Assembly: GCA_964627035.1 (NCBI GenBank)
Contig: CAZVKN010000005.1
Coordinates: 652 to 64,651 of the forward strand
Source of the DNA: an uncultured bacterium
Lineage (GTDB): Bacteria; Electryoneota; AABM5-125-24; Hatepunaeales; Hatepunaeaceae
Reading direction: 5' to 3'
DNA: 64,000 nucleotides
Shown here: piece by piece, positions 9,426 to 49,047 of the stretch
Numbering within the stretch: the first letter of the stretch is position 1
Layout of the letters: each line of letters starts with the position of its first letter
Translations under genes and position numbers: made by a program
The notes under the pieces: generated by a model
What the model was told of the DNA's origin: nothing
Database searches by the model: none
What the model saw: the letters and a program-made list of their open reading frames with translations, nothing else

Positions 9426-9466
9426 ATGTGATTAGGTAATTGAGTAATTTTGTGATTAAGTGATTC
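9426..9466. repeat. Tandem GTGATT-type octamer array (5 units) upstream of the C25 peptidase gene
   Basis: aatgtgattaggtaattgagtaattttgtgattaagtgattcac. Member of a five-locus family (see also 24494, 27609, 29481, 48966). Confidence 0.7.
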
Positions 9467-9500
9467 ACAACAGATCGAACGGATTAAACTGATTTTCACC

Positions 9501-9592
9501 TCACCACCAAGACACAAAGGCACCAGGAAAACTGATACAAGTCTTTTCTTCTTGGTGTCTTCGTGCCTTGGTGGGTAATCTTTCTCACATTC
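9501..9592. repeat. Palindromic intergenic repeat B (copy 1), immediately 3' of the 9593..11881 gene
   Basis: CACCACCAAGACAC...loop...CTTGGTGTCTTCGTGCCTTGGTGG-taatcTTTCTCA. About 40 nt are nearly identical to 45506..45556 (cttggtgtcttcgtgccttggtgg identical). Confidence 0.7.
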
Positions 9593-47082: not shown

Positions 47083-48864
47083 TTATTGATTTAGGTAGGC
47101 GTACGGACCACCGTACACCCCTATATCAGAACGACTGCTGTCGGGATCCCTAAGATCAGGTCGTCCCTGATCTATACCGGGAGATCCCTCCGCCAGTCTG
47201 TAACTGCCTTCTACAAATATTGGTTCTTGATTATCAATATTCTGGTTTCCCCATCCCATTTCACCACCAACTACTACCTCATTAACATTCCAAAACAAAT
47301 TGTAATTAGGAATAAGAGGCTGACCATGTCCCTGAGCGTTCCAAAGACCATAAACAGCGTTAATAATCATATTATTGTCAAATGTTCCCCAACTCGACGC
47401 CATGTCTCCGCTTCCATGAAGGTTGATAAAAAGGTTGTTGCGTATTTGTGATGAAATAAATCCGCTAATAATCCCGTATCCATTTGAATTTGGAACCGAA
47501 AAAATGTTATTAACTATTTTCGTTCCCACCCCATCCATGCTGAGGCAGTAACATTGAAACTCTGAAGGATTAAGAAAGTTAAATCCTCTTATAATTGTGG
47601 TTGAATCTTGATCTCCCCCCAGCCAAACAATAACCCATAAATCAGTTCCGTTTAGAATTGTTTCCTCCGGTCCTTCTTCGCTGACAAGTGATACGTTCTT
47701 ATCGAACATTTGTATTGACTCCCGATATTCACCTGCACTGACCATTATCGTATCTCCATCTTCGCTCGCCCAAATTGCATCCTGAATAGTCTCATAATCT
47801 TCCGGCACCCAGATGACTTCGGGATAATTATTTCTGATCGTGAACATTACCACCTGACTTAAATTCGTGTTACCGCTAATATCTACAGCCCTTACTTGTG
47901 CAATAATCATGCCATCAGCTCGATCATTTGTATCAAAAAGCACATTGCCGTCATAGAAATTTTCTCTATTTACGCCATTCATGCTCCGCCAAAGTTGACC
48001 GTTCAGCAATAGTTGTACGCTGTCAAGTGCTGTGTTATCAATCACCTGAAAGCGCAAATTCACTGTACCTTCAAGTGTGTCACCCGGTGCAGGAGATAGC
48101 CAAATGATAGTCGGTGGTGTGTGATCTTCCGGTGGAGGATCGTCACTGTTGCTGACTCTTATCAATAACGATTGGCTGGTTCCAATATTGCCAGAATTAT
48201 CCCAAGCCCGAGCCTCCCAGATATGCACGCCATCGCTGTCGGATCTTGTGTCCCACAGGTATTCGAGTGTCTCTTCACGCCCTTGCGGATAGTAAGTCAT
48301 AACCAACGCACCGTTTCTGATCAGGCGCACCGAATCCACAGCGACCTCATCGAAGAAACCGAGTACCAGCCTGACTGTGTCGCTCAGTGTGGATCCGGCA
48401 TCGGGTGCTGTCCACCACACTTCCGGTGGTAAACGGTCTTCAGGGGGGTCGGTTACGTTCTTTACACTCACCATGAGGGTCGGACTTATTCCAAGATTAC
48501 CTGCGTCGTCCCACGCGCGAACTTCGAGTATATAGACACCGTCTTCGACCTCGCGACTGTCCCAATCCAGTGAATAGGTTGAGTCGCCCGATGCAGATAT
48601 GCGCCACTCGTCAGGAGCGAAGCCGTTGCGATAGACAGCGATCCGGTCTATATGTCCTTCGTTATCACTGACGGAGAATGAGATGGTGACAATTCCGGCG
48701 AGTTCGGAGCCGCTGTTGGGTGCAAGCCATTCGATTTCAGGTGGTTGGTAATCCGGGAATGGAGCGGTGGGAGCGTCGTCGCTGATGCAGCCGGATAGAA
48801 CTAATACTGTTAAGACGGTAGCTAACAAGCTGGTTAAGAATCGTATAAACATGATGATCTCCAT
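47083..48864 (-). CDS. Lipoprotein with three tandem Ig-like domains and a C-terminal right-handed parallel beta-helix (pectate-lyase-fold) domain
   Basis: Lipobox VLVLSGC. Three ~95-aa repeats (EIEWLAPNSGSELAGIVTISFSVSDNEGHIDRIAVYRNG / EVWWTAPDAGSTLSDTVRLVLGFFDEVAVDSVRLIRNG / TIIWLSPAPGDTLEGTVNLRFQVIDNTALDSVQLLLNG). Beta-helix region VPEDYETIQDAIWASEDGDTIMVSAGEYRESIQ...NNLFINLHG...DIGVYGGPYA. Confidence 0.7.
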   Translation of the reverse strand: MEIIMFIRFLTSLLATVLTVLVLSGCISDDAPTAPFPDYQPPEIEWLAPNSGSELAGIVTISFSVSDNEGHIDRIAVYRNGFAPDEWRISASGDSTYSLDWDSREVEDGVYILEVRAWDDAGNLGISPTLMVSVKNVTDPPEDRLPPEVWWTAPDAGSTLSDTVRLVLGFFDEVAVDSVRLIRNGALVMTYYPQGREETLEYLWDTRSDSDGVHIWEARAWDNSGNIGTSQSLLIRVSNSDDPPPEDHTPPTIIWLSPAPGDTLEGTVNLRFQVIDNTALDSVQLLLNGQLWRSMNGVNRENFYDGNVLFDTNDRADGMIIAQVRAVDISGNTNLSQVVMFTIRNNYPEVIWVPEDYETIQDAIWASEDGDTIMVSAGEYRESIQMFDKNVSLVSEEGPEETILNGTDLWVIVWLGGDQDSTTIIRGFNFLNPSEFQCYCLSMDGVGTKIVNNIFSVPNSNGYGIISGFISSQIRNNLFINLHGSGDMASSWGTFDNNMIINAVYGLWNAQGHGQPLIPNYNLFWNVNEVVVGGEMGWGNQNIDNQEPIFVEGSYRLAEGSPGIDQGRPDLRDPDSSRSDIGVYGGPYAYLNQ

Positions 48865-48965
48865 AATAATTCGGGAACAGACAAAACCCTATACAAAAGC
48901 AATATAAACAGAAACGACAGAATTACAAGAGAGTGAATCGAAGAGAAATTCTCAGCAGATGCAGC

Positions 48966-49047
48966 GGATGAAGCAGATTTAGTAATTTAGTAATTTAGAA
49001 ATTGAGTGATTGAGTGATTGAGTGATTAAGTAATTTAGTAATTGCGT
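48966..49047. repeat. Longest tandem GTGATT/TAATTT octamer array (about 10 units) upstream of the lipoprotein gene start
   Basis: tttagtaatttagtaatttagaaattgagtgattgagtgattgagtgattaagtaatttagtaattgcgtgattgagtgattc. Confidence 0.75.

Follow-up and report, generated by a model that had tools for sequence, protein, structure and literature searches.

Tandem AATYAC/GTRATT octamer arrays with a fixed polarity at gene edges in an uncultured bacterium and in other phyla

Five arrays of tandem octamers lie in a 64,000-nt stretch of DNA (hereafter, the window) from an uncultured bacterium of the Electryoneota. They are best explained as a dispersed family of intergenic elements in which selection acts on GTRATT (opposite strand, AATYAC), a hexamer that recurs strictly every 8 nt, as a rule four times. 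Arrays of this kind have a fixed polarity at the outer edges of intergenic regions: immediately 5' of a gene the sense strand carries AATYAC, and immediately 3' of one it carries GTRATT. Look-alike arrays in many bacterial phyla obey the same placement rule as those of the window, and the arrays are kept by selection at gene edges. Strand and gene-boundary polarity together favor a reader of RNA rather than a DNA-binding regulator. We tentatively propose that the arrays are a transcribed, strand-specific RNA element, which would serve as a leader or intercistronic runway free of G and of structure, much like the ACAAUUAC repeat of the TMV Omega leader.

Five arrays of one hexamer in the window

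Five tandem octamer arrays had been predicted in this DNA, and their existence was confirmed. Tandem Repeats Finder called period-8 arrays at 9428–9465, 24488–24530, 27609–27645, 29484–29518 and 48976–49059, and the same five are recognizable by inspection of the window sequence. The pattern GTRATTNNGTRATT (GTRATT-NN-GTRATT) was observed 19 times, against 0.05 ± 0.22 in shuffles. All 19 matches lie on the plus strand and none on the other, which bears out the single orientation ascribed to the arrays. Self-matches of hexamers at period 8 number 80 versus ∼15.6 expected, with no other period comparable, and the top hexamers in this respect are GTGATT (9) and GTAATT (4). No further arrays were found in the ∼15 kb of genome extending past the window.

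Array 1 (9428–9465, minus strand) has five units, which on the plus strand read GTGATTAG GTAATTGA GTAATTTT GTGATTAA GTGATT. Its AATYAC strand is the minus (sense) strand, and 113 nt separate the array from the downstream ATG (9314) that is the likely start of a gene encoding a C25/type IX secretion peptidase. That start (MKRVLIF...) gives a protein of 916 rather than 950 aa, in agreement with the gene caller of another assembly. Array 2 (24493–24533, minus strand), with the five units TTGATTTT GTGATTAA GTGATTGC GTGATTTT ATGATTGC, ends 4 nt from ATG 24489 of a 66-aa Cys-rich ORF (24289–24489, minus strand). Array 3 (27609–27645, minus strand) also has five units, the first of only 7 nt. It occupies the entire 39-nt gap between the stop of an AhpC/TSA gene (27648) and ATG 27608 of the gene for a DUF6029 outer-membrane protein, directly adjoining the latter. 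No Shine–Dalgarno motif is present at the start of either the Cys-rich ORF or the DUF6029 gene.

Array 4 (29480–29517, plus strand) comprises four perfect units (29488–29517) and a degenerate first unit that includes the TGA stop of a plus-strand epimerase gene (28469–29491). This array lies between convergent genes, with GTRATT on the sense strand of the 3' trailer and no minus-strand start downstream. Array 5 (48974–49059, minus strand) is the longest, with ten to eleven units. It is flanked on one side by a REP-like hairpin after an Obg gene and on the other by the gene for a Big_7 lipoprotein, the start of which (48864 or 48852) is 112–124 nt away. Thus, the original prediction that four of the five arrays sit directly 5' of start codons holds for those at 24493 and 27609 only; the arrays at 9428 and 48976 are separated from their starts by 113 and 112–124 nt, respectively, and that at 29484 is at a stop codon.

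A weak sigma-70-like match, TTGTAA-16-TATATT (48901–48928, minus strand), lies between array 5 and its start, and another, CTGACA-18-TATCTT (9357–9386, minus strand), lies between array 1 and its start. Each agrees with the consensus at 9 of 12 positions, where ∼1 such match is expected by chance in the region, and their geometry with respect to the arrays is alike. Arrays 1 and 5, whose starts are 113–125 nt away and beyond a weak promoter-like match, may not be part of the mRNA. If the match at 48901–48928 is a real promoter, array 5 is upstream of it and not in the leader. The arrays themselves are not sigma-70 promoters, as none contains a consensus −35/−10 pair.

The window also contains a palindrome, GTGATNNATCAC, within the 20-mer GGTAGGGGCGTGATTTATCAC, as had been noted. 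Its sites are 15863 and 24621 only, where the 20-mer copies are in opposite orientations; the sequence at 24571, previously counted as a copy, is a variant (CTTGATTTATCAA). This palindrome is a motif separate from the octamer arrays. G is present in the window's other octamer families (CACCAAGA, TCGTCAC), and further short tandem-repeat families and REP-like hairpins share intergenic regions with the arrays. G-quadruplex formation was considered and rejected: G3 runs arise solely with GG spacers, which by eye the window arrays do not have.

Searches for a known family were negative. Rfam 15 gave no match in the window at the gathering score, and for 18 array-bearing loci it gave tRNA and tmRNA matches only. 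A plasmid BLAST search with array 5 as query gave no match. The exact array strings were not found in the literature searched, where octamer or octanucleotide repeats led only to a note on Geobacter and to unrelated papers, and neither there nor in Rfam did we find a description of these arrays.

Constraint on the hexamer and stability of the arrays

Constraint is far stronger on the hexamer than on the spacer. Within the window arrays, mismatches occur at 12 of 186 hexamer positions (6%) versus 33 of 62 spacer positions (53%; p = 1.6e-14), and each array contains several distinct octamers. The spacer is 2 nt long in 612 of ∼640 adjacent hexamer pairs, and the mode of run length is four units. 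On the GT strand, spacers are ∼51% G and 4–6% C, in genomes of 54–56% GC. Beyond the hexamers, no flank is conserved in all five arrays, which rules out a mobile element with a conserved body.

The arrays are stable and not phase-variable. Array 2 (24493) is base-identical in four other independent metagenome assemblies, array 3 (27609) in seven, array 4 (29484) in five and array 5 (48976) in four, and array 1 (9428) is identical in ERZ23499057, the sole other assembly that covers it. Two Logan contigs stop at the edge of array 5. It had been suggested that the arrays are simple-sequence contingency loci, in which slippage in unit number toggles the flanking genes, and that polymorphism in unit number should be sought; the comparison across these assemblies gave no length or base differences. 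Short tandem units do occur near surface-protein genes in the window, and in other genomes certain arrays consist of perfect repeats, with as many as 12 units. Yet contingency loci need homogeneous tracts and length polymorphism, and the window arrays show neither, with spacers departing from the majority at more than half of their positions. Moreover, the arrays lie outside ORFs and have no internal sigma-70 −35/−10 pair, and thus lack the placement of contingency tracts; one of them is at a 3' end, and in other phyla housekeeping genes are flanked. Because the arrays are identical across assemblies and their units heterogeneous, we reject phase variation, and we give contingency loci almost no credence.

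Array retention at an orthologous site reaches beyond synonymous saturation. An ortholog of 85% identity still has an array at the AhpC–DUF6029 site, with identity at 4-fold sites down to 38–40%. A 70% ortholog has no array at this site; a hairpin and GGAG are found in its place. For the Big_7 gene, the search for orthologs returned paralog-level matches only (≤59% identity), with no arrays nearby. Arrays are also absent from 46 kb of related Calditrichota-like contigs.

Polarity of similar arrays in other phyla

More than 120 similar arrays were found in species genomes, mostly of Acidobacteriota, Chloroflexota and Bacteroidota. Heterogeneous arrays make up 72% of these, compared to 24–28% of controls. 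In viral contigs, composition-matched control octamers formed 76, 101 and 80 arrays, versus 96 for GTRATT. Because control octamers are equally common there, we rejected the naive chance estimate as a null across genomes and based the cross-genome inference on heterogeneity and polarity instead. The first ATG of an ORF (≥100 aa) is ≤30 nt downstream of 37 of 128 arrays in the sense orientation, 6 of 120 in the antisense orientation and 48 of 585 random positions. Of 84 heterogeneous arrays, 73 have a gene boundary 5' of the array as read on the GT strand, and 32 have one 3' of it. Arrays of control hexamers showed no gene-boundary polarity.

The genes directly downstream of arrays in other phyla include thyA, parA, parB, rplX, nuo51 and that of ferrochelatase, and bona fide N-termini follow the arrays, among others those of ThyA, ParA, a MurC-like protein and a NuoG-like protein. 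An operon-internal array was found in the rplN–rplX spacer of two Acidobacteriaceae species, and a co-directional ORF ends ≤60 nt before 14 of the 37 start-adjacent arrays. Shine–Dalgarno cores follow the arrays in 6 of 24 cases versus 24% in noisy controls, that is, with no measurable depletion. About 44% of the cross-phylum arrays come after stop codons, in the opposite orientation.

Two arrays adjoin tRNA genes: at one locus (L065) an AC array is 11 nt 5' of tRNA-Trp, and at another (L068) a GT array is 20 nt 3' of tRNA-Arg. Both tRNA genes follow the polarity rule, and therefore the rule is not specific to translation. A single rule for transcripts entering and leaving genes, tRNA genes included, would be provided by signals for termination and decay: the C-rich, G-poor AAUYAC could be a Rho loading site on transcripts that enter a gene from the spacer, and the GAUU/AAUU-rich strand could supply RNase E-type cleavage sites in trailers. 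A sense strand that is G-poor, C-containing and unstructured is consistent with this. Against it, a Rho site before thyA, rplX or murC would lower the expression of essential genes, AAUUAC units have no YC dinucleotide outside the spacer, and the 8-nt pitch is shorter than the usual spacing of Rho primary sites. We consider such signals very improbable.

An inverted partner lies within 120 nt of 34 of 111 arrays, at loci of Acidobacteriota and Chloroflexota, where the pairs bracket a spacer; the window arrays are unpaired. These pairs fold into long hairpins (−13 to −44 kcal/mol). Covariation in the hairpin spacers (63, versus 60.7 in a within-hairpin shuffle) is not position-specific and not significant given locus composition, and therefore the hairpin itself is not under selection.

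Several known repeat systems resemble the arrays in part. Cyanobacterial STRR are dispersed tandem 7-nt units in non-coding DNA near gene ends, are lineage-restricted and have no assigned function. They differ in being heptamers of other sequence, in heterocystous cyanobacteria, and to our knowledge no case has been reported among them of a core conserved next to freely varying spacers. REP, BIME and REPIN elements are likewise abundant, intergenic, often located at 3' ends or over stop codons, able to form inverted-pair hairpins and tolerated in operons. However, the REP unit is an imperfect palindrome with a conserved GTAG head, linked to the RAYT transposase, whereas the units here are tandem non-palindromic hexamers, no flank is shared by all five arrays, and the window contains no transposase gene. 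Paired hepta- and octanucleotide sites of Geobacter metallireducens (classes 1–3, e.g. GTTGCTYN ×4) are similar in having about four octamers, inverted pairs at variable distance, tens of intergenic copies, several families per genome and no assigned function. The combination of about four tandem octamers with opposite-strand pairs is seen in the Acidobacteriota and Chloroflexota loci, not in the unpaired window arrays. The G. metallireducens sites have other unit sequences and were published without an analysis of polarity; their authors proposed IHF/HU-type binding, and insertion sequences insert at a fixed distance from them.

These parallels raise the question of whether the arrays are simply REP/STRR-type intergenic DNA, generated by slippage or a mobilizing activity and tolerated, with generic effects only (terminating or stabilizing hairpins) and an orientation filtered by context. 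The family is multi-copy and lineage-restricted, shares intergenic regions with other tandem-repeat families and REP-like hairpins, forms stable hairpins where paired, and is tolerated inside operons. Control octamer arrays are as common as GTRATT arrays in viral contigs, and short-read assemblies break at array edges. Tolerance alone, however, fits poorly with hexamers that are kept while spacers drift, with the excess of heterogeneous arrays over controls, with an array kept at an orthologous site past synonymous saturation, and with the lack of polarity in control arrays. Nor do conserved flanks, an element body or position-specific covariation in hairpin spacers speak for it, all being absent. 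We regard this explanation as rather unlikely.

Candidate readers of the arrays

Conserved hexamer, free spacer, strict 8-bp pitch and a mode of four units make a periodic binding-site array a fair description, and to that extent the suggested regulator-binding array is partly supported. It is not a signal common to exported-protein genes, as had been supposed: array 4 overlaps the stop codon of a gene for a cytoplasmic epimerase, and arrays elsewhere adjoin thyA, parA, rplX and others. As duplex DNA, the arrays could be operators or centromere-like sites, with a dimer of ribbon-helix-helix (RHH) type on each hexamer and cooperative polymerization along at least four contiguous units. Parallels are omega/ParB of pSM19035 on 7-bp heptads, MetJ on 8-bp metboxes and ParG on parH. 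The omega heptad WATCACW (AATCACA/TGTGATT) contains the window hexamer exactly, and it occurs by gene starts in 7–10 contiguous copies over promoters, of which at least four are needed. Like omega sites, the arrays are found both as direct runs and as inverted partners. A patchy lineage distribution would track the presence of the binding protein, arrays 1 and 5, with weak promoter-like matches downstream of them, may be upstream of promoters, and binding of a global regulator was proposed for the analogous paired sites in the G. metallireducens genome paper.

Other features are hard to reconcile with an RHH operator. The pSM19035 arrays have a pitch of 7 rather than 8 bp and mix orientations, which never switch within an array here, and they amount to a few sites, on the plasmid of a Firmicute, next to the cognate gene. 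The arrays described here are numerous and chromosomal, show polarity toward gene ends, and have a C/T-degenerate hexamer and a reader that is only putative. C and T are used equally at one hexamer position (AATTAC being interchangeable with AATCAC), and G greatly exceeds C in the spacers. Polarity is seen at both 5' and 3' gene ends, with arrays hugging stop codons, and sites occur within a ribosomal-protein operon and a 39-nt intercistronic gap. The genes downstream form no regulon. A scan of six window ORFs that are small or lack annotation found no RHH or Omega_Repress domain, and neither did one of 37 genes adjacent to arrays. We regard an RHH-type reader of DNA as the main rival, though a rather doubtful one.

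The RNA reading accords with the constraint on the hexamer, the polarity at gene boundaries, the bona fide N-termini after arrays, the operon-internal sites (the AhpC–DUF6029 gap among them), the persistence of the array in that gap in a relative, and the strand asymmetry. G is nearly absent from the AATYAC strand, for which no RNA structure is predicted: folding around the arrays gave 0 to −2.9 kcal/mol for the sense strand and −12.9 and −18 kcal/mol for the antisense strand. A G-poor, unstructured segment directly 5' of the AUG is found for arrays 2 and 3 (MFE 0 and −2.9 kcal/mol), but not for arrays 1, 4 and 5. We infer that the arrays act post-transcriptionally, as single-stranded RNA. At a start codon, (NNAAUYAC)n would be a runway devoid of structure, start codons or Shine–Dalgarno-like sequence, on which a 30S subunit or a terminating 70S ribosome could land or slide, reaching the AUG without a Shine–Dalgarno sequence. 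A candidate reader is ribosomal protein bS1 or another modular protein that binds single strands, in which case (AAUCACNN)5 as RNA, rather than duplex DNA, would be the form specifically bound. The mirror copy, (GURAUUNN)n, just after stop codons would offer UGA/UAA in all three frames, and mirror copies that both flank a spacer could pair into a long hairpin.

The TMV Omega leader shows the same combination of an 8-nt unit, an AAUUAC core, few Gs and no structure, with ACAAUUAC direct repeats plus (CAA)n. The leader has three copies of the repeat, of which the last stops 1 nt short of the AUG. Gallie's work reportedly deals with the activity of the Omega repeat itself in bacteria. Unlike the arrays, Omega is a plant-virus leader, with three dispersed copies, no strict 8-nt array and no 3'-end counterpart. 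E. coli ribosomes translate it without a Shine–Dalgarno sequence, through protein S1.

Several points weigh against the RNA reading. Arrays 1 and 5 may not be transcribed with their genes, tRNA genes share the polarity, and Shine–Dalgarno cores show no measurable depletion after arrays. Arrays of opposite orientation after stop codons need a second function, and lack of structure does not demand a specific hexamer. The presence of G in the other octamer families of the window counts against it as well, and restriction to certain lineages, with none in the Calditrichota-like contigs, makes a poor fit to a universal reader. A bolder version is a cis-code across phyla, in which the 5' edge of a gene is flagged by at least four AAUYAC spaced at 8 nt, and the 3' edge by their complement. 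Its reader would be a conserved modular OB-fold protein acting on single-stranded RNA (e.g. the four mRNA-binding domains of bS1, one hexamer per domain) that loads ribosomes without a Shine–Dalgarno sequence, and the plant-virus Omega enhancer would exploit the same code. This version is speculative, and we think it improbable.

A reader of RNA would make the arrays a sequence-defined alternative to the Shine–Dalgarno sequence and, for little-studied phyla (Acidobacteriota, Chloroflexota, Calditrichota-like), a gene-boundary marker that could aid gene-start prediction and expression design. A reader of DNA would be a widespread chromosomal relative of the plasmid omega/ParG-type array binders, active at sites numbering in the hundreds. 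In both cases the purpose of STRR and Geobacter-type tandem repeats becomes testable, given a clear motif, a pitch that is strict and a polarity rule open to disruption by experiment.

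Periodic hexamer arrays and their conservation

Using Tandem Repeats Finder and direct inspection of the sequence, we located five period-8 arrays, at 9428–9465 (array 1), 24488–24530 (array 2), 27609–27645 (array 3), 29484–29518 (array 4) and 48976–49059 (array 5). Each is a run of octamer units, with the hexamer GTRATT (complement AATYAC) followed by a 2-nt spacer. The pair GTRATT-NN-GTRATT occurs 19 times in the window, whereas dinucleotide shuffles give an expectation of 0.05; every occurrence lies on the plus strand and none on the other. The five tandem arrays in one orientation, as originally predicted, are therefore real. 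Hexamer self-matches at offset 8 showed a five-fold excess (80 versus 15.6), with GTGATT and GTAATT the top hexamers, and no other period gave a comparable excess in the window.

Conservation was counted over 31 in-register units, with degenerate edge units deliberately kept in. Only 12 of 186 hexamer positions depart from GTRATT, versus 33 of 62 spacer positions that depart from the majority base (p = 1.6e-14). We found no flank beyond the hexamers common to all five arrays; the sole flank similarity between arrays is a 9-mer, CAGCAGATG, directly next to array 1 and array 5 on their gene-facing sides, with one copy at the former (9416–9424) and about three in tandem at the latter (48953–48978). 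An ortholog of the neighboring DUF6029 protein, with 85–86% amino-acid identity, has an array in the gap corresponding to that of array 3 (TAG-tcaact-AATCAC ca AATTAC ac AATCAT aa AATTAC ccaa-ATG), although the genes on either side are only 38–40% identical at 4-fold degenerate positions. In a 70% ortholog, the array is missing; a terminator-like hairpin is present instead, and GGAG stands 7 nt ahead of the ATG. No arrays were found in 46 kb of more distant relatives, and no further ones in ∼15 kb beyond the window ends. Retention on the one hand and absence from distant relatives on the other show that the family is kept by selection on the hexamer, yet is lineage-restricted. Set beside this, a reading of the arrays as tolerated repeats of the REP/STRR kind seems improbable.

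Arrays 2, 3, 4 and 5 are base-identical in 4–7 independent assemblies from different samples, as is array 1 in the single additional assembly that covers it, and the units inside each array are heterogeneous. Phase variation through unit number, one of the roles first proposed, is thus close to excluded. In two Logan short-read assemblies of the window species (L003 and L006), contigs stop precisely at the outer boundary of array 5, behavior expected of a multi-copy k-mer, which suggests that the arrays break de Bruijn graph assemblies.

Genes and other repeats around the arrays

The window has 47% GC, and many of the proteins it encodes carry type IX secretion sorting domains; nearest named homologs come from Calditrichota MAGs. 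Many genes have GGAG-type ribosome-binding sites, and the sole perfect sigma-70 consensus promoter (TTGACA-17-TATAAT, 24221–24249, minus strand) lies upstream of the gene for a 1710-aa C25 peptidase. Array 3 occupies the entire 39-nt gap from an AhpC/TSA stop codon to the ATG at 27608 of the DUF6029 outer-membrane protein gene (26064–27608), and so touches the ATG as predicted. Public gene calls differ on this start, giving 496 or 514 aa. Because only the 514-aa form, whose ATG adjoins the array, has a proper signal peptide, and because more distant orthologs are full-length, the ATG at 27608 is the true start. Array 2 and the ATG of a 66-aa Cys-rich ORF are 4 nt apart; neither this start nor that of the DUF6029 gene has a Shine–Dalgarno (SD) motif. 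Arrays 1 and 5 lie 113 nt from the likely start of a C25 peptidase (MKRVLIF...) and 112–124 nt from a lipoprotein start, respectively. In both cases, a weak promoter-like match, of a quality expected by chance, sits between array and start with the same geometry. Array 4 begins at the TGA stop of a plus-strand epimerase gene and is flanked by convergent genes. A location directly 5′ of gene starts, claimed for four of the five arrays, thus holds for arrays 2 and 3 and fails for the distant arrays 1 and 5 and for array 4, at a 3′ end. The proposed tie to exported-protein genes was not supported.

Several other repeats share the window. The 20-mer GGTAGGGGCGTGATTTATCAC is present at 15855–15875 and 24621–24641, in opposite orientations, and encloses the palindrome GTGAT-NN-ATCAC (0.21 expected by chance in the window); the palindrome is missing from a variant copy at 24571–24591, one of the two sites first named for it. 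Across 24571–24641, this variant pairs with the perfect copy as one long hairpin. A REP-like long-hairpin family, AGTTYAGAGTTCA ... TGAACTCTRAACT, enclosing a pair of small GC hairpins, has five copies (12012–12069, 15931–15989, 28339–28404, 49076–49141 and 50217–50286), mostly just 3′ of minus-strand genes; one immediately adjoins array 5. A second tandem-octamer family pairs (CACNAAGR)3 with its complement, (TCTTGGTG)3, at 9499–9525 with 9550–9573 and 45475–45498 with 45516–45539, the two arms lying inverted just past gene ends, where they can form a hairpin. Inverted pairs, here around a ∼35-nt spacer, are also made by a third family of short tandem units, TCGTCAC(N2-4) with its complement GTGACGAA (18769–18802 with 18838–18850; 45374–45396 with 45422–45450). 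Longer repeats of 146–279 nt and 74–92% identity (3632–3910, 6219–6497, 9594–9859, 12104–12337, 16001–16266 and 19007–19272) are 3′ ends of neighboring genes encoding the sorting domains; one corresponds to a 111-aa ORF (3596–3931) that duplicates the end of an 844-aa protein.

Recurrence and polarity in other genomes

Scanning GTDB species genomes for four consecutive units gave at least 120 stretches. Among the matches listed, assigned roughly by record title, 45 were from Acidobacteriota, 30 Chloroflexota, 15 Bacteroidota and 11 Pseudomonadota, with a few each from Desulfobacterota-like and candidate phyla radiation lineages, two from Bacillota, one each from Calditrichaceae and KSB1, and none from Actinomycetota. 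Simple chance expectation is an invalid null for such counts, since viral contigs held 96 motif stretches versus 76, 101 and 80 for composition-matched controls. What sets the prokaryotic arrays apart, among the matches listed, is heterogeneity (more than one distinct octamer in 72% of arrays versus 24–28% of controls), strict pitch (a 2-nt spacer in 612 of ∼640 cases) and a four-unit mode (96 runs of four versus 15 of five).

The arrays are also polar with respect to genes. Read as (NNAATYAC)n, 37 of 128 arrays listed are followed within 30 nt by the first ATG of an ORF (≥100 aa), with a peak at 10–14 nt, versus 6/120 in the opposite direction and 48/585 at random positions. The N-termini that follow are genuine (e.g. 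ThyA, ParA, a MurC-like and a NuoG-like protein). Read as (GTRATTNN)n, 56 of the 128 start at or just past the stop of a long same-strand ORF, the stop often being the array's own TAA or TGA, as at the window epimerase gene; another 43 adjoin a start on the opposite strand. Among heterogeneous arrays listed, a gene boundary lies 5′ of the strand reading GTRATT (GT strand) in 73/84 and 3′ of it in 32/84, an asymmetry absent from control-hexamer arrays. The rule (AATYAC sense before genes, GTRATT sense after) holds for all five window arrays, and also for arrays at two tRNA genes (L065 and L068). Inverted partner arrays, among the matches listed, lie on the inner side in 34 of 111 cases and on the outer side in three. 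In both gene contexts, GT-strand spacers are ∼51% G and 4–6% C, so the AATYAC strand is almost free of G.

An RNA-level element or a DNA operator

Operon-internal sites, strand asymmetry and polarity make a transcribed, strand-specific leader or spacer element the best-supported class, and we tentatively favor it. Some arrays occupy sites at which one would expect neither promoter nor terminator, the AhpC–DUF6029 gap among them. In two Acidobacteriaceae species, the rplN–rplX spacer of the ribosomal-protein operon holds an inverted GTAATT/AATTAC pair (L018, 224–330; L039, 7915–8000), with a perfect arm beside the rplX start and a degenerate other arm. A co-directional ORF ends within 60 nt before 14 of 37 start-adjacent arrays among the matches listed. 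Strong hairpins (–13 to –44 kcal/mol) arise from the inverted pairs, but no position-specific covariation is seen in their spacers (63 versus 60.7 in a within-hairpin shuffle), and selection does not seem to act on the hairpin as such.

For RNA in the AAUYAC sense, the folding prediction shows no structure (0 to –2.9 kcal/mol), whereas the complement folds. Start-adjacent copies could provide a runway free of G, start codons, SD-like sequence and structure, on which the AUG is offered to the ribosome. The TMV Omega leader is the closest precedent: its 8-nt repeat, ACAAUUAC, has the same core, and the last copy lies 1 nt from the AUG; E. coli ribosomes use this leader without an SD sequence, through S1. 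The specific hexamer, the strict pitch and the mode of four units may point to a modular reader, beyond a simple lack of structure. In the GT orientation, T-R-A spells UGA or UAA, the R degeneracy being exactly that which retains a stop codon, and by sequence three units at the 8-nt pitch suffice to place stops in every frame; these stops may be under selection.

Several observations weigh against an RNA-level role. The mRNA may not include arrays 1 and 5, the 3′-end class and tRNA cases require something besides translation, and SD depletion after arrays could not be demonstrated. Near relatives lack the family, and the other octamer families in the window contain G and form inverted pairs.

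Ribbon–helix–helix (RHH) proteins bind short motifs at 7–9 bp pitch. Omega/ParB of pSM19035 binds 7–10 contiguous heptads, WATCACW (AATCACA / TGTGATT), direct or inverted, and needs at least four; their hexamer is that of our arrays. Paired arrays of four octanucleotides, reported in the G. metallireducens genome paper as putative global-regulator sites, are analogous. The main rival reading, an operator read at 8-bp pitch by a chromosomal relative of omega/ParB, would explain why the core is conserved and the spacer free, along with the strict pitch, the mode of four units and the patchy distribution. Yet it fits poorly with gene-end polarity, operon-internal sites, the G/C asymmetry of spacers and the unrelated neighbor genes, and we consider it rather doubtful. 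The arrays have no description in Rfam or in the literature searched. As periodic repeats of a hexamer, they form a stable, selected and polar family with members in several phyla.
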